A DNA stretch of 64,000 nucleotides, taken from NCBI GenBank assembly GCA_035293105.1, contig DATDOV010000066.1:97967-161966 (forward strand). The letters are read 5' to 3'. This DNA is from Blastocatellia bacterium (GTDB lineage Bacteria; Acidobacteriota; Blastocatellia; UBA7656). This document shows positions 16,077-22,296 of the stretch, piece after piece. The notes under the pieces were generated by a model. It saw nothing but the letters and a program-made list of their open reading frames with translations, was not told the origin of the DNA and ran no database searches. The stretch's first letter is position 1. Each line of letters opens with the position of its first letter. The translations under genes were made by a program, and so were the position numbers.

Positions 16077-17663
16077 GTGCTGGCGCCGACAGCGAACTTC
16101 ATCCGCAGCCACGCGAGACTCTCGCTCCTAATCGCGAGCCTGGCGATCGCACCCTGCGCATGGCTTGTGTGGGCTGCGCACTCGCGGCCGCGAGCGTGGG
16201 CCGTCCGTGAAGTCCCGATAGCCTTCTGGGCGTGGCAATCCAACGCGCCCGCGCAAGCAGACGTAGAGCGGGCCCTCCATCAGACCGGCGCGCGAACCTT
16301 GTTCATGCGAGCCGGCCAGCTCGACTACGAGCGCGGAACGTGCCGTCTTATCCGCGCAGCGAGCGGGCCGTTCCCGCGCGGCGTCGAGTTGCACCTCGTC
16401 TACAATGCGACGCCCGACTTGCTCGCCGCCTTCGAGACCATCGACATTCAAGCGCTCGTTTCTGCGATTGCCGAAACCTACGCGGCGGATTCTGAGCGCG
16501 CCGCTAGGGGGCGCGCCGAGGTCGCCGGGCTTCAACTCGACCTCGACGTTCCCACGCGGCTTCTCCCGAAGTATGAAGGGCTCTTGCGAATGTTGCGCGA
16601 GCGGCTGCCCGAAGGAATCAAGCTTTCGATCACCGGGCTGCCGACCTGGATGAGATCACTTGCGCTGGCAACAGTGCTTGAAGCGGTCGATTTCTGGGTG
16701 CCTCAGTGTTACGGCGCGACGATCCCCGAACAGCTCGAGCGGGCCACACCGATCGCTTCGCTCGCAGCGGTCGCCGATGCGATCGATGGCGCGCGCGGGC
16801 TCGGCCGGCCTTTCTACGCGGGGCTTGCGGCTTATGGCTACGCGATCCACTACTCGCCGGACGGCCGCCGAATTCAAGTGAGCGGGACGTTGGATCCTGA
16901 ACTTGTCGCAAACAGCACGAGCCTCGAGCTTGTTGAGCGCCGGCGGTTCGGCTCGGGTGAGAACTCTTCGAGCGAGTGGCGGCTCGTGTACCGGGCGAGG
17001 GAGGCATGCGTGTTGGGCGGCCTATTCCTGCGCGAGGGCGAGTGGCTGATGCTGGATTTGCCGACTGCCGAATCGTTGCGAGCAGCAGCGCGGACGGTGC
17101 GCGAGCGGGCGGGTCCGCGCTTGCTCGGAGTTTGTGTTTTCCGTCTGCCGTCGGCGAGCGACAAGACCACGCTGACGATCGAAGAGGTCGCCGATGCTCT
17201 GTTGGACCGGCCGCCAAGTGTCGCGCTGGAGGTGACGGCCAAACTCGCGCCACTCTCTCAATCGGCGACACCTGGCGAGCGGACGCGTGTCGAGATCGCC
17301 TGCGTGAACACCGGGTCGACCGGTGCGCTCTGTGGCGAGGATGCATTGATGGTCGAAGCGCAGGTTCCGGCCGGCCGGCTGCGCACAATCGAGCTTAACG
17401 GCTTCGGTTCTTCGGAGACGCTATTCGCGCCGGCAGGAATAGACGGCCGCTCGGACGAAGTCGTTGCGTGCGGGGTCCGGAGAGCGAACCTGGTCAGATT
17501 GATGAAGCGCACGTGGCGACCCGGCGAGACGGCGTTTGTTGTTCTCGAATTCAGCGGGGAGCCGCCGGACGCAACCTCGCTGACGATCAGCGTCCGACGT
17601 GATGAACGAACCGCGTGGCAGGAGACCCGGACGGTTGCGATCGAGAGGGAGAACCGCTGGTGA
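16077..17663 (+). CDS. Membrane-anchored hypothetical protein. It may be DUF3142-like or glycoside-hydrolase-like; the family assignment is uncertain.
   Basis: N-terminal TM helix, then a 480-aa soluble region. It is translationally coupled to the downstream TPR gene. Confidence 0.45.
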   Translation: MLAPTANFIRSHARLSLLIASLAIAPCAWLVWAAHSRPRAWAVREVPIAFWAWQSNAPAQADVERALHQTGARTLFMRAGQLDYERGTCRLIRAASGPFPRGVELHLVYNATPDLLAAFETIDIQALVSAIAETYAADSERAARGRAEVAGLQLDLDVPTRLLPKYEGLLRMLRERLPEGIKLSITGLPTWMRSLALATVLEAVDFWVPQCYGATIPEQLERATPIASLAAVADAIDGARGLGRPFYAGLAAYGYAIHYSPDGRRIQVSGTLDPELVANSTSLELVERRRFGSGENSSSEWRLVYRAREACVLGGLFLREGEWLMLDLPTAESLRAAARTVRERAGPRLLGVCVFRLPSASDKTTLTIEEVADALLDRPPSVALEVTAKLAPLSQSATPGERTRVEIACVNTGSTGALCGEDALMVEAQVPAGRLRTIELNGFGSSETLFAPAGIDGRSDEVVACGVRRANLVRLMKRTWRPGETAFVVLEFSGEPPDATSLTISVRRDERTAWQETRTVAIERENRW

Positions 17664-20566
17664 ATAGCATCTCGATACGAGGAAAGTTCTTTCGCCTGCT
17701 GACCCGCGCTGTTTTGTGGTCGGCTGGTATTGCGGCTACCGGGCTCGCGTGCGGGTGGTTGGGCGGAGCGGGAGAGCGATCGGTGCGGTTCAACTGGTAT
17801 GCGAAATCCGGACGCGACTTCGCTCTGCTGCCGCCTCTGTCAAAGAGCTTCGTCATAGAGACGCCACGCGTCAATCGGATCGGCGACTATGGCGACATAT
17901 GGGATCGAGCAAAACAGTTGCTCGATGAAATCGGCAAGTTATGGGACGACGCGCTGGAGGCGGAGGAGCGCGGCGACCTGAACGCGGCTCGCAATCTGCT
18001 GAGCAAGTATTTGGAGCGCACCGAGCCCCCGCGACAGACACTTCGGGTTAACGGCGACCTGTACTCTCACTATGAGCCGCTCGACATCAAAGACCGGCGG
18101 GAGCGAAGGAACTCCGCTCAAGACCAACTCGACGCAATGGGCAACCTGGTCAGAGGCGCGCGCCCCGCGGCAGTGAGCCAGTACCTCCAAGCCAGAGGCG
18201 CTTATGACTCCGACGCCCCGGACGAGGAAGTGACGAAGACGCTCGACGCGATTCGAGACCCCAGCTTGCGCGACAACGTGGCCTATCTGCGCGCGGCGCT
18301 CCCCTATCGCGCCGACAAGTTTGAAGAGGCCGCTGATGCTTTCACCGCTCTTGCGCACACATATCCGGGCAGCGAAAAGCGAGAGGCGGCCCTGTTGATG
18401 GCCGCGCTCGCAACCATGAAGCAGAGCGAGGTCTATGACGCGCCTTATGTGCGCAACCGAGACGATCGGGGACAGCCGCACACCGCGAAGGACGACGCAT
18501 GGTACGCGGCGCGGACCGGGTTTCAGAGACTGATGCGCGAGTACCCGCGCGGGCGATACTTCAACGATGCGCGGGGGTGGCTTGCTTATTTGTCCTACCG
18601 GGCGGGCGACTGGCCCGACGCGATGGTCGATTACTACAGGATGCTTGGCGACGCGGGGGACGCGAGCGCGCGGCTGGAAGCAACTTTCTCTCTGTACATC
18701 GTTCGCAGCGAGGTCACGGACTCCGAGATGCGCGAGGTCGAAGCGCGGCTCGAGCGAGAGCCGGCGGCGGCACTCGCTTACTGCTATCACGAGATGTACA
18801 ACTTCGCGACGGGCTACTGCGAGTACCCATACGATTACCCCGAAGACCGCAGCGAGTTCCGCGTTCGCAGCACCGAGTCACGCAGGCGAATCGCGGCGTT
18901 CGCGAACCGGCTGGCCGCTCGCGCCTCGGTCAACGCGGCGTTCGTGCTGCGAGCGGCGATGGCCAATCTGGAGGTCGAGGATTACGCGGCGGCATCGCGG
19001 CTTGCGAGGCGCGCATTGCAGCTAGGGTCAACCGGTGAGCAGAGAGCTCGGGCATTGTGGGTCGAAGGAGTCGCCGATCACTTGCGAGGCGAATACCGCC
19101 TGGCTCGCGACGCGATGAAGCGGCTCATCGCCGAAAAGCCGGCTGTTGATCTCCGGGAACGGGCCGAGCGCTACCTCCCAATCATCCTCGAAGACATGGG
19201 CGACATCGAGGGCGCGCTCGACCAGTACCTTGCGCTCAATTACCACGTCGACGCCGCATACTTCATTGATGTTCTGATGACGCCCGAGCAGTTGGCGCAT
19301 TTCATCGAGGGTCATCCGATGAGCCCGAAGCGCGATGAGCTGCTTTACGCGCTCGGCGTTCGGTACCTGCGCGACAAGCGATGGAATGAAGCGCGAGCCA
19401 CGTTGGCGAAGGCGCGGACGACGGCTCGCGGCGTCGATGATGATTACAATGACGAGCACAGTCACCTCTATCCGATGTATGGCTCCGAGCCCGAGACGCT
19501 TAAGGAGGACCCTGCTGATCCGGCAGTTCCCGGCGTCAGACCGCAGTGGGTCGAGCAGGATTTGAGGACCGCGAACGACCTCGAACGCCTGGCGCGCGAC
19601 GTAGACCAAGCGGAAGGCCACGAAGCGAAGGCCGAGGCGCTCTATCAACTGGCGAGTTATCAGTATCAGGGCAATCTGCTGTTCTACAATTCTGCGGCAT
19701 GGCGGTGGGAACGGCACGATCATCTGTACGACTTGAACAACAGCGGCTTGTTTCGTCAGCCGGGCGAAGCACAACTACTCTTTCGGAACATGCAATCACA
19801 CGATGCGGCGGCGCGCTCGCTGGAGGATTTCCTCGAGGTCGTGCGGCGCTTCCCGAACACTCGGGCGGCGCGTGATGCGCTGTACACGGCGGCGGTTTGC
19901 CACGAGCGGCTCTCCGAGTACAACAACTACTGGCGAGACATCTACTCGAGGGGCGGTTACGCGGGCAGCCGGCTTGTCACGTACAAAGACGTGAGAGCGG
20001 CCTATCCCGATTATCAACTGCCGCGAGGGACATTCGGTTGGCAGCCGGCTACGCGGACGGTCAACGGCGGTCCGGGTTGGAAGCCGCCGCCAAAGCCTAT
20101 CCCACGGACGCCGCGGTGGAAGCGTTACACTAGCGTCCTCGTAGTGACATTGTTGGACATGCGGCAGCGGCTCAACACGGCGGCACTAGAGATCGCGAAG
20201 CTGTGTGTGTACCTGAGCTGGTTGCAGTTCCAGTGTTTCATCATTGGGATGGCGGGGTATGCCTGGTATCTGTGCTTCAAGGCGAAGCGCCGGCTGATGG
20301 CGGAGATGTGCGAGTATGGAGGGTGGCCTCGCGCGCTGATAGGGCCGGCGCCGCAGGAGTTGTCGCCGCGAATGCCGATTCAGAGCTACCGCGATTTTCT
20401 GAGGCACGAGGCGCGTGACGAGTGGATTCGGAATGCGCGGCGTTGGCTTCAAAACACTACGTGCCTGTTGTTGCACACGAGGGCCGGGCCGGTACTCGTG
20501 ACAAACTTCATGCTGTACGGCTCAGCGCTGGTGTTTCTGGTTATGCTACTCAGTGTGATCGTATGA
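17660..20566 (+). CDS. Large TPR-like repeat protein with a C-terminal membrane anchor.
   Basis: The GTG start overlaps the upstream stop (GTGA). Helical-repeat-rich sequence throughout. C-terminal hydrophobic helices (VYLSWLQFQCFIIGMAGYAWYL; VLVTNFMLYGSALVFLVMLLSVIV). Confidence 0.55.
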   Translation: MNSISIRGKFFRLLTRAVLWSAGIAATGLACGWLGGAGERSVRFNWYAKSGRDFALLPPLSKSFVIETPRVNRIGDYGDIWDRAKQLLDEIGKLWDDALEAEERGDLNAARNLLSKYLERTEPPRQTLRVNGDLYSHYEPLDIKDRRERRNSAQDQLDAMGNLVRGARPAAVSQYLQARGAYDSDAPDEEVTKTLDAIRDPSLRDNVAYLRAALPYRADKFEEAADAFTALAHTYPGSEKREAALLMAALATMKQSEVYDAPYVRNRDDRGQPHTAKDDAWYAARTGFQRLMREYPRGRYFNDARGWLAYLSYRAGDWPDAMVDYYRMLGDAGDASARLEATFSLYIVRSEVTDSEMREVEARLEREPAAALAYCYHEMYNFATGYCEYPYDYPEDRSEFRVRSTESRRRIAAFANRLAARASVNAAFVLRAAMANLEVEDYAAASRLARRALQLGSTGEQRARALWVEGVADHLRGEYRLARDAMKRLIAEKPAVDLRERAERYLPIILEDMGDIEGALDQYLALNYHVDAAYFIDVLMTPEQLAHFIEGHPMSPKRDELLYALGVRYLRDKRWNEARATLAKARTTARGVDDDYNDEHSHLYPMYGSEPETLKEDPADPAVPGVRPQWVEQDLRTANDLERLARDVDQAEGHEAKAEALYQLASYQYQGNLLFYNSAAWRWERHDHLYDLNNSGLFRQPGEAQLLFRNMQSHDAAARSLEDFLEVVRRFPNTRAARDALYTAAVCHERLSEYNNYWRDIYSRGGYAGSRLVTYKDVRAAYPDYQLPRGTFGWQPATRTVNGGPGWKPPPKPIPRTPRWKRYTSVLVVTLLDMRQRLNTAALEIAKLCVYLSWLQFQCFIIGMAGYAWYLCFKAKRRLMAEMCEYGGWPRALIGPAPQELSPRMPIQSYRDFLRHEARDEWIRNARRWLQNTTCLLLHTRAGPVLVTNFMLYGSALVFLVMLLSVIV

Positions 20567-20576
20567 GGGCGAAGAC

Positions 20577-20762
20577 ATCCACGAAGAACACGAAGGAACA
20601 CGAAGAATGGGAAGGGAAAAACACTCGATTCGAAAAAGAGAAAGGCTCTTTGTTCATGGTCAGGGACGCGCCGACTGGTTGGGTCTCGGTGAAGAGCCTC
20701 GACCGAAGAAGTCCGCAGGCCCCGCAGCTTTTCTTCGTGTTACTTCGTGTCCTTCGTGGATG
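20577..20762. mobile_element. MITE-like unit 1. It is about 186 bp, bounded by about 30-bp imperfect terminal inverted repeats, each made of three CACGAAG heptads at 9-10 bp spacing.
   Basis: Left end TCCACGAAGAACACGAAGGAACACGAAGAA. Right end TTCTTCGTGTTACTTCGTGTCCTTCGTGGA, which is the reverse complement apart from 3 mismatches. Confidence 0.55.
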
Positions 20763-20777
20763 AAACGGAGAAGGATA

Positions 20778-20961
20778 TCCACGAAGGCCACGAAGAAACA
20801 CGAAGAATGAGAAGGGGAAAATTCACTGGATTCGGAAAAAGAGGCTCTTTGTTCGTGGTTGGGGCCGTGCCGATTGTTTGGGTCTTTGGTGAAGAGCCTC
20901 GACCGAAGAAGTCCGCAGGCCCCACAGCTTTTCTTCGTGTTACTTCGTGGCCTTCGTGGAT
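20778..20961. mobile_element. MITE-like unit 2, a tandem copy about 90% identical to unit 1 with the same TIR structure.
   Basis: Direct alignment to unit 1, separated from it by a 15-bp spacer. The antisense and sense ORFs in this region encode repeated peptides and are artefacts of the repeat. Confidence 0.55.
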
Positions 20962-20964
20962 GAA

Positions 20965-21333
20965 TCATCTTACGAACTTCTTCCATTCGAGCTTTCCGGT
21001 ACTGCCAAAGTTGATCAGCAGCCCAACCCGCAGACCCGTCGCTTTCAGGTAGTTCAGTATCTGCGACTCTTCACGCCCGCCGAGGCCATCAAGCGCCTTG
21101 ATCTCGACGACGATCTGCCCATAGCAAATGAAATCCGCCTGATACTCTTTGTTCAGACGCTCTCCTTTGTAGTGGATCACAAGCGGCGCTTGCGCGACGA
21201 AGGGGATGCCACGGCTGCGAAGTTCTCGCTCCAGCGCTTCTTGATAAACCGGTTCGAGGAATCCTGACCCAAGCTCGCGGTGGACTACTATCGCCGCTCC
21301 AATGACGGCGTAGACCTCGTCTTTCAGAATCAA
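20965..21333 (-). CDS. GxxExxY family protein (PD-(D/E)xK nuclease-like superfamily).
   Basis: The 122-aa protein carries the family signature (IGAAIVVHRELGSGFLEPVYQEALERELRSRGIPF ... DFICYGQIVVEIKA). Confidence 0.75.
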   Translation of the reverse strand: MILKDEVYAVIGAAIVVHRELGSGFLEPVYQEALERELRSRGIPFVAQAPLVIHYKGERLNKEYQADFICYGQIVVEIKALDGLGGREESQILNYLKATGLRVGLLINFGSTGKLEWKKFVR

Positions 21334-21455
21334 CTCCGTCGTTCTTTCTCCTTCGTGATACTTATCCGATTCTTTTCTCCGGCCAGTTCGGGAAAGCTTT
21401 GCCAGGGCCTTTCGTTGATGCCCTACATCGATCCTCCGGCACCAACTCTTCCCTG

Positions 21456-21484
21456 TGTGTTATTGCCTTCGTGTTTCTTCGTGT
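21456..21484. repeat. Solo copy of the triple CTTCGTG array (right-TIR-like), about 125 bp upstream of the GxxExxY gene start.
   Basis: CCTTCGTGTTTCTTCGTGTCCTTCGTGGA matches the right TIR of the tandem units. A single extra CTTCGTG lies at about 21348. Confidence 0.5.
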
Positions 21485-21495
21485 CCTTCGTGGAT

Positions 21496-22296
21496 TCACT
21501 TCCCCCTAAACTCCGGCTTACGCTTTTCGTGAAACGCCGCGATTCCTTCCTTCACATCATCGCAGTAGTTCACAACCATCGTCCCGAGCGCCGCGTCTTC
21601 GAGCGCGTTCTCCAGGTTCATCGTCTGCTGCTTGTACATCATCCGCTTCGTGGTCCTGATGGCGATGGGTGGTCCGTCGGCGAGACGCTCGGCCCACTCG
21701 CGCGCCCGCGCCATTAATTGCCCGTCAGCGACGACCTCGGTGACCAGTCCCAGTTCTTTCGCTTCGCGCGCCGTGTAGACCTCCGAGAACAGCGACATCT
21801 TCAGCGCGTTCTGCAAGCCCATGTACTTCGGAAAGAGATACGCGCCGCCTTCGTCCGGGATGAGCGCGAACTTGAGGCTGGTGTCGCCGAGTCTTGCACT
21901 CTCGGCCGCGATGCGAAAATCGCAACAGAGCGCCAACGTCAGCCCGCCCGCGACTGCCGCTCCATTCACCGCCGCGATCGTCGGCTTATCGAAGCGCCGC
22001 AAGAACGTGACGAGCTGATGCATGTTCTCGCGCATCTCGAGCATCGACTCCATCCTGTGCCCGCGATAACGCGCCGGATACTGGAAATCGCGGCTGATGT
22101 CGCCGCCCGAGCAGAAGCCGCGGCCCGCGCCGGTGATTATCACTGCCCTGATGTTGTCGTCGTCGCGCGCATCGGCGAGCGCGGCCAGCATCTCGTGGAC
22201 CATCACTTCCGAATAAGCGTTGAGCTTTGCGGGCCGGTTCAAAGTGATCGTCGCAACGCGGTTCTCTTTGGCATGAATGATCTCTTGAAACTCCAT
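21496..22296 (-). CDS. Enoyl-CoA hydratase/isomerase (crotonase) family protein.
   Basis: Crotonase fold motifs (ITGAGRGFCSGGDI; AAVNGAAVAGGLTLALCCDFRIA). Start chosen at MEFQE, preceded by a GAGGAGG ribosome-binding site. Confidence 0.85.
   Translation of the reverse strand: MEFQEIIHAKENRVATITLNRPAKLNAYSEVMVHEMLAALADARDDDNIRAVIITGAGRGFCSGGDISRDFQYPARYRGHRMESMLEMRENMHQLVTFLRRFDKPTIAAVNGAAVAGGLTLALCCDFRIAAESARLGDTSLKFALIPDEGGAYLFPKYMGLQNALKMSLFSEVYTAREAKELGLVTEVVADGQLMARAREWAERLADGPPIAIRTTKRMMYKQQTMNLENALEDAALGTMVVNYCDDVKEGIAAFHEKRKPEFRGK

Follow-up and report, generated by a model that had tools for sequence, protein, structure and literature searches.

GxxExxY nuclease genes bounded by triple-heptad arrays: a probable REPIN/RAYT-like cassette in a Blastocatellia genome

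Background

REPIN/RAYT systems, which consist of doublets of repetitive extragenic palindromic (REP) sequences together with REP-associated tyrosine transposases (RAYTs) (PMC3116915, PMC3337134), are the closest described counterparts of the element reported here. The element occupies positions 20577-21495 of a 64,000-nucleotide stretch of DNA from Blastocatellia bacterium (Acidobacteriota; assembly GCA_035293105.1, contig DATDOV010000066.1, positions 97,967 to 161,966), hereafter called the window, and comprises a small gene of the GxxExxY family among arrays in which the heptad CACGAAG is repeated three times. The locus is probably part of a REPIN/RAYT-like system, with the arrays serving both as termini and as recognition sites of a GxxExxY cassette of about 450 nt; the window contains one gene-bearing copy and two gene-less derivatives.

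The system shares with REPIN/RAYT a single gene flanked by short inverted repeats that are also dispersed as intergenic, hairpin-forming doublets, a repeat type that follows the associated gene, the lack of target-site duplication and the persistence of elements at orthologous sites. The gene here, however, encodes a 120-aa PD-(D/E)XK nuclease, whereas RAYTs are HUH/Y1 (IS200-like) transposases. The repeat is made up of three heptads spaced by a helical turn, with ends reading (A/G)(A/T)C-C(A/G)C..., whereas REP sequences have a GTAG or CGTC head, neither of which is present here. Furthermore, GxxExxY homologues of 70-79% identity are found across phyla, while RAYTs are mostly single-copy and vertically inherited.

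Miniature inverted-repeat transposable elements (MITEs) are likewise short non-coding units whose terminal inverted repeats recur at the ends of a gene-bearing element, and they too show dispersed copies and presence/absence polymorphism. In the present element, however, the loops are unrelated between copies and the arms are conserved across phyla. No parent element with a recognised transposase and the same ends was found, the only gene with these ends being GxxExxY (PF13366). The insertion sequences (IS) of the IS200/IS605 group resemble the element in their compactness and lack of target-site duplications, and its hairpin ends are plausible substrates on single-stranded DNA; however, IS200/IS605 elements have no terminal inverted repeats and use a Y1 HUH enzyme, and nothing in the arrays points to strand specificity.

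A literature search with the motif strings returned no paper, and GxxExxY, PF13366 and TIGR04256 returned incidental mentions and one superfamily table. The function of PF13366 is given as unknown in a superfamily table, and the family has previously been noted for multiple transfers (PMC3424549). This looks like an element type without description in Rfam or the searchable literature, one that belongs among the gene-associated palindromic repeat systems, with a considerable likelihood that it represents a mobile element of a new class.

Results

Five arrays of the exact form CACGAAG-nn-CACGAAG-nnn-CACGAAG are present in the window, as exact matches to CACGAAGnnCACGAAGnnnCACGAAG at 20580-20605 (+), 20733-20758 (-), 20780-20805 (+), 20933-20958 (-) and 21467-21492 (-). 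No match was obtained in the shuffled window, even with up to 3 mismatches. The five triple-heptad arrays that the original prediction had placed near the GxxExxY gene from the sequence alone are confirmed. The heptad occurs 35 times in the whole window against 12.2 expected; no arrays lie outside this cluster, and the window has a single GxxExxY gene. Four of the arrays form two inverted pairs bounding tandem units of about 185 bp, exactly as had been described (Table 1). Other details of that description needed adjustment. The units are closely alike, but blastn gives about 87% identity rather than about 90%. The predicted extent of 20577-21484 located the feature correctly but cuts the last heptad, the true end being 21495. 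The solo array, reported 125 bp upstream of the gene, is indeed upstream but starts 134 nt from the start codon. Finally, the 15 heptads counted are joined by a 16th at 21351-21357 (-), in which CACGAAG is followed by GAG (Shine-Dalgarno-like) and which ends 17 nt before the TTG start.

Table 1. Features of the GxxExxY locus in the window (positions from the first letter of the window)
Feature	Position	Strand	Remarks
5' terminal array of gene-bearing unit	21467..21495	-	reads ATC-CACGAAG-GA-CACGAAG-AAA-CACGAAG on minus strand
Leader, array to start codon, 133 nt	21334..21466	-	contains 16th heptad
GxxExxY gene, 122 aa, TTG start	20965..21333	-	minimal PD-(D/E)XK nuclease
Gene-less hairpin unit 2	20777..20961	.	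arrays 20933-20958 and inverted partner 20780-20805, 127-nt loop
Inter-unit spacer, 15 nt	20762..20776	.	outside repeat
Gene-less hairpin unit 1	20577..20761	.	arrays 20733-20758 and 20580-20605

Read along the minus strand, the order is the stop codon of an enoyl-CoA hydratase gene, array, leader, GxxExxY, unit 2, spacer, unit 1 and the stop of a convergent open reading frame (ORF). The 5' array starts directly past the hydratase TGA (21496-21498), the nearer array of unit 2 reads CACGAAG on the minus strand 6 nt past the GxxExxY stop codon, and 10 nt separate unit 1 from the stop codon of the convergent ORF (983 aa, tetratricopeptide repeat/YfiO-like, 17615-20566). The insertion thus fills nearly all of the 929-nt intergenic gap. 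Both units have arms of 31-32 nt that are 94-97% complementary, with 123 nt between the arms, and their loops are 84.6% identical. When the two units were compared, all 42 heptad columns were identical as against 127 of the 152 other columns (Fisher p = 0.0014). The same structure was found on 8 contigs from other samples of the Blastocatellia (Acidobacteriota) source population; leader and loop sequences gave no match beyond contigs of the source species.

The gene product matches PF13366 (E 4e-40) and TIGR04256 (GxxExxY, E 3e-40), with a profile score of 137 bits against curated cut-offs of 35 and 22, in agreement with the nuclease fold proposed for it originally. G24, E27 and Y30 of the G-x-x-E-x-x-Y motif are invariant, as are the PD-(D/E)XK residues E27, D67, E77-x-K79 and Q91-xxx-Y95. 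The protein is a predicted minimal Cas4/RecB-like PD-(D/E)XK nuclease with an intact active site; it differs from Cas4/RecB and minimal PD-(D/E)XK nucleases in having neither an iron-sulphur cluster domain nor a context of clustered regularly interspaced short palindromic repeats (CRISPR). A fold match to I-Bth0305I was weak and adds nothing specific, comparison by sequence with solved structures gave no match, and the PADLOC anti-phage defence profiles returned 0 families at E <= 0.01. The family is very large, with thousands of relatives retrieved from one homologue search, and the description of TIGR04256 points to a strikingly skewed copy number, some genomes being multi-copy. Homologues of 70-79% protein identity come from metagenome-assembled genomes (MAGs) named from different phyla, e.g. 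Chloroflexota and Desulfomonilia, and many homologues lie on contigs of about 1 kb. The phage and plasmid collections yielded 0 phage matches and 8 plasmid records. Only 2 GxxExxY loci came from IMG/VR, a number insufficient for using other small gene families as controls.

The occurrence of arrays around other GxxExxY genes was assessed in a broad sample of 80 metagenomic loci (49-68% identity), 71 of which had enough flank for counting. An upstream array was scored when at least 3 like 7-mers with 8-12-nt spacing were present within 90 nt 5' of the gene, and a downstream array when at least 2 reverse-complement copies were present 3' of the gene; shifted positions served as controls. Other GxxExxY genes do carry such arrays, a point that the original prediction had proposed to check: an upstream triple array, with a heptad varying by locus, was found at 44/71 loci (62%) and an additional inverted copy on the 3' side at 34/71 (48%), compared with 3/171 and 9/171 (2-5%) at the shifted positions. 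Configurations were coded at 66 loci, with A for a forward array and a for its reverse complement. The commonest was A-gene-a (23 loci), followed by A-gene-Aa (8, the type of the window), a-gene-a (6) and Aa-gene-Aa (4), and 15 less frequent patterns accounted for the other 25 loci. Measured across their outermost heptads, the gene-bearing units are 419-562 nt long (median 465 nt).

The arrays that flank family genes are triple 7-mers with a 9-10-nt period, and the word itself varies from locus to locus. The classes observed are CACGAAG, CACGAAT, CGCGAAT, CGCAGAT/CACAGAT, CACGAAA, CACGGAA, CGCTAAT, CACAAAT and CACTGAG, giving the general form C-R-C-N-R-A-N with termini RWC-CRC...GYG-GWY. Each locus uses one word (e.g. 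CACGGAA six times, CACAGAT eight times or CACAAAT twelve times). The nearest protein neighbour had the same heptad class in 55/77 cases against 18% expected, a value reached in 0 of 2000 permutations, and other arrays within about 2 kb were of the resident gene's class in 24/37 cases against 19% expected. Class is independent of GC content, a single class covering loci from 34% to 67% GC. Heptad class follows GxxExxY phylogeny rather than host. Alignment columns that track the class (V7/T/C, K114/S and W117/Y) carry a signal that is inseparable from phylogeny. With three copies per arm one helical turn apart, concerted change and a fit to the protein tree, the heptad appears to be read by a co-travelling protein and not conserved by pairing alone.

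The layout seen in the window recurs in homologues of about 75% identity, namely P0019 and P0070, which lie in operons resembling bacteriophage exclusion (BREX) systems, and P0120, in an ispF operon. In all three, the order is upstream stop, ATC-(CACGAAG)x2-3, gene, (CACGAAG)x1-2, short loop and (CTTCGTG)x3-GAT. In the ispF operon (L241:2440-2530), the cassette is inserted on or at the ispF stop codon, and the ispF frame reads through the 5' array of the cassette, gaining about 20 residues (..STKDTKNTKNKTHEHLDPER). In the BREX-like operons (L126-L145, L236-L240), the slot directly past the PglX-like N6_N4 methylase varies among relatives and contains GxxExxY, McrBC, an AAA_15 protein, or Vsr and Dcm, and many of these operons have a 23S_rRNA_IVP (four-helix-bundle) gene ahead of the methylase. 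At another locus (L162:770-2140), a DUF4160-like/DUF2442-like pair and a zinc-ribbon ORF, with family names judged by sequence motifs, have a solo CGCAGAT hairpin on one side and, on the other, a GxxExxY gene whose two flanking arrays share one (reverse) orientation.

Gene callers were found to read the arrays as coding sequence. They report a 66-aa ORF spanning the hairpin units (window 20577-20810, equivalent to L122:5081-5281), and homologues (protein P0029) carry N-terminal 'MIHEGHEG' extensions, such array-derived ORFs being probable annotation artefacts. At some CACGAAA-class loci the repeats follow one another at a 9-nt period in the reading frame of the gene, producing an MNHEKHEK... 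N-terminus; at one locus of this class (L209), the in-frame array apparently supplies the sole available start codon.

The same arrays are widely dispersed without the gene. The exact 26-nt CACGAAG array occurs at 120 or more loci in more than 10 phyla of the species-representative genome set, the lineages listed including Acidobacteriota, Planctomycetota, Verrucomicrobiota, Desulfobacterota, Chloroflexota, Bacteroidota, Gemmatimonadota, Proteobacteria, Ignavibacteriota, Sumerlaeota and Dormibacterota. Their consensus reads tTAAC-CACGAAG-GA-CACGAAG-nnn-CACGAAG-GAAA. In about half of the cases an inverted partner follows downstream, most often at a distance of 16-30 nt and occasionally as far off as about 200 nt. 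Where array loci were compared in pairs, the common part was the 75-145-nt hairpin only, with unrelated flanks, and a few orthologous locus pairs retain the element. Absence of further copies from the genome had been named as evidence against mobility; copies occur at these at least 120 genome loci, in unrelated intergenic sites. It had also been stated that frequent copies not associated with GxxExxY would argue against a specific functional link with the gene. Taken literally this is what was found, as a GxxExxY ORF is present in 7/120 listed array loci (within 138 nt of the array in 7/7), but it is misleading since the link seen from the protein side is strong and family-wide.

Among 201 ORFs neighbouring the arrays, there was no transposase family and one phage integrase. 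The only recurrent Pfam families were PDDEXK_3 and DinB_2, with 4 members each, the latter unexplained. In IMG/VR, 44 stretches carry a CACGAAG array beside capsid, terminase and portal genes, and arrays adjoining capsid, terminase and connector genes were seen in L251-L294. The plasmid collection gave no match to the CACGAAG hairpin. A CGCGGAT hairpin comes after a GxxExxY gene in the isolate Gemmatirosa kalamazoonensis, where this hairpin has 6 and 11 copies, 17 in all, on two megaplasmids, and GxxExxY is present at 3 places on one plasmid. Plasmid 1 of this isolate also carries a triple-repeat hairpin with the word GGACTGAAG and an 11-nt period, past a 1146-aa ORF (L234:25698-25790); no small gene accompanies this hairpin, and its word does not fit the C-R-C type.

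Several individual loci show further arrangements of the hairpins. In a Bacteroidales MAG (JAISWE010000169.1; L020:5240-5840), seven 84-nt hairpin units stand head-to-tail, in which arm 1 is always exact CACGAAG x3 and arm 2 is always of the CTTTGTG type, which is G-T/G-U compatible; a CRISPR-like array was rejected here because the seven units are complete hairpins and not repeat-spacer units. In Terriglobia MAGs (L011:2364-2507, L038:7806-7945, L073:3411-3552 and L075:3110-3252), the CACGAAG hairpin forms the centre of a larger palindrome of about 145 nt, whose outer ends read GTAGTGGGTCAGTTT...AAACTGACCCACTAC, present in 2 copies in one MAG. A viral contig (L293:7100-8400) has CACAGAG, CGCTGAT/CGCAGAT and CACGAAG arrays side by side, with an apparent junction joining arms of two different heptad classes. 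Elsewhere (L083:6590-7800), two direct repeats of about 70 nt, which have CACGAAG arrays as their ends, enclose a UPF0175 and PIN-like toxin-antitoxin pair, indicating that arrays are able to bracket other small modules.

Evidence on mobility came from comparison of orthologous sites. In a Blastocatellia genome (GCA_046331565.1, L231), a solo hairpin, ATCCACAAAG...CTTTGTGGAT, lies between two hydratase genes where two relatives (L229 and L230) have 13 nt. The loop of this CACGAAG hairpin is itself a second hairpin, made up of ACAGGAT x3 and its complement, so that one array is nested in another (L231:4330-4500). Relatives with enoyl-CoA hydratase orthologues of 88-89% identity lack the window insertion; the pre-insertion junction could not be reconstructed from them as synteny is broken on the far side. 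For the insertion in the BREX-like operon, no clean empty site was found, the relatives carrying other accessory genes past the methylase. The target-site duplications expected of MITEs were sought in 51 solo hairpins at boundary offsets of 0-8 nt and lengths of 2-6 nt, and no excess of direct repeats was detected; the palindrome reaches only 2-3 nt past the heptads. The proposal of tandem MITEs with terminal inverted repeats hence holds for the inverted ends, the dispersal and the filled/empty site, but with no target-site duplication at any offset and no DDE transposase, the units are not canonical MITEs.

Discussion

We propose that an array-bounded GxxExxY cassette was inserted between two convergent housekeeping genes, with the triple heptad arrays as its inverted termini. 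The arrays may act as sequence-specific binding sites for the element's own nuclease, of which three protomers would presumably occupy each arm, one at every helical turn. The nuclease would then cut where the element begins and ends, the substrate probably being a hairpin, cruciform or single-stranded form, and this cutting may move the elements. Gene-less hairpins would be non-autonomous relatives that arose through mobilisation in trans or through deletion between arrays.

A number of observations weigh against this REPIN/RAYT-like reading. About 40% of the GxxExxY loci have no clear upstream triple array, and on the hairpin side the gene is missing from the fetched stretch at 113/120 listed genome loci and from all 44/44 viral stretches. 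Matched arrays sometimes bracket genes other than GxxExxY, and two protein clades that are only 40% identical are both flanked by CACGAAG arrays. That heptad class tracks protein phylogeny may simply reflect linked DNA being inherited together. The L231/L229 comparison is the only clean filled/empty pair, and its hairpin is gene-less; no gene-bearing copy was found in two contexts, as P0019, P0070 and P0120 each kept one context across many samples. PD-(D/E)XK enzymes are not known to act as stand-alone transposases, and binding and cutting of the arrays by GxxExxY are inferred.

Some of these points would suit a homing mechanism, in which the hairpins are older, independent host palindromes and GxxExxY is a free-standing homing-type endonuclease gene that cuts them and is copied into them by repair without mobilising them. 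PD-(D/E)XK homing endonucleases exist. The A-gene-Aa layout of 8 loci and the window would result from a gene inserting within or beside the left arm of a pre-existing hairpin, arrays far outnumber genes, and the same CACGAAG word serves the two distant clades. However, the commonest layout is the simple A-gene-a, with the gene as the sole content between inverted arms, and heptad class tracks the protein tree closely. The spread of the hairpin with intact heptads to more than 10 phyla and phages would also still need explaining, and we consider homing unlikely.

An RNA-level role was also considered, in which the 5' and 3' arrays pair in the transcript and insulate, stabilise or, through RNase III, excise a promoterless GxxExxY message, the gene-less hairpins being terminator or processing elements. 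The stems are very stable, each window unit folding as a stem of roughly 32 bp (DNA z-score -7.0; RNA z-score -9.2 for both units together), and no sigma-70-like promoter was found in the cassette. Most of the elements are found between genes of the same direction, in many cases only a few nt from stop and start codons, and on one phage contig (L273; 560-700, 2840-3040 and 7105-7305) each hairpin is directly followed by GAGG-N8-ATG of the next gene. Pairing, however, leaves unexplained why each arm holds three copies of one heptad with a 9-10-nt period, why all copies in a locus switch jointly, and why heptads are exact (about 93% conserved at second-arm heptad positions) when the inter-heptad spacers are only 44-69% complementary between arms. 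The commonest change is the G-U compatible C-to-T at position 4 of the second-arm heptad (24 times), yet A or G occurs there 21 times; with these replacements position 4 looks loosely read, and the test for G-U wobble is ambiguous. Terminator-like sites are no commoner in the region than in shuffles (3 against 1.7 expected), none falls on an array and no T-run follows the units. Searches of Rfam returned only sub-threshold miRNA-precursor models on the 15-nt-loop inter-unit hairpin (generic hairpin matches) for this region and no match for 20 loci of other heptad classes. Such a role is, on this evidence, rather improbable.

A further alternative treats the arrays as attachment (att)-like sites for a recombinase encoded elsewhere, as in integrons, with GxxExxY as the commonest cargo. 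Like an integron cassette with its attC site, the present units are small, apparently promoterless, placed past stop codons and followed by an imperfect palindrome; the outer triplets, often AAC...GTT, resemble the conserved core triplets of the attC consensus. Direct array repeats flank some genes, among them the window gene and the toxin-antitoxin pair described above. Most genes are nevertheless bracketed by inverted rather than direct arrays, the heptad periodicity is unlike the R and L boxes of attC, the loci are single cassettes and not cassette arrays, and heptad class tracks the phylogeny of the cargo itself. Neither the flanks of the window nor the array neighbours contained intI, and no integrase or recombinase recurs near the arrays, where a lone phage integrase was seen. 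This alternative is accordingly given little weight. The other reading offered originally, a cluster of direct-repeat sites for a winged-helix or response-regulator protein of the source organism, is very improbable. The heptads do lie about one helical turn apart, mirrored on both strands, and the source contig carries a response regulator gene at a distance of about 5 kb. Identical arrays, however, are found in more than 10 phyla and phages beside unrelated genes, mainly at 3' ends and in operon interiors instead of promoters, they are absent from close relatives with the same flanking genes, and the heptad tracks GxxExxY phylogeny.

Conclusions

Genes set in matching arrays, a heptad that changes with protein lineage and the dispersal of the same arrays together make up a concrete, testable system, pairing a nuclease from a family of unknown function with its probable DNA sites. 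The system accounts for a widespread class of palindromes between the genes of Acidobacteriota, Planctomycetota, Chloroflexota, Desulfobacterota and further phyla, as well as for annotations containing extended ORFs and spurious 'HEGHEG' or 'FVSFVV' peptides. It possibly also explains contig breaks at GxxExxY genes, many homologues lying on short contigs. If the nuclease does mobilise the arrays, this would add an enzyme class to the ways in which bacterial DNA moves. We raise, as a tentative and rather doubtful extension, that GxxExxY proteins may be the mobilising enzymes of an unrecognised mobile-element superfamily, with units of about 420-560 bp that encode a nuclease of roughly 120 aa, end in triple-heptad inverted termini, insert at gene boundaries without target duplication and have seeded gene-less hairpins in large numbers in more than 10 phyla and in phages. 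Should this be true, such units would be the smallest gene-bearing mobile elements in bacteria, and the co-evolution of heptad specificity with the nuclease would provide a natural set of small, programmable-looking DNA-recognition modules.

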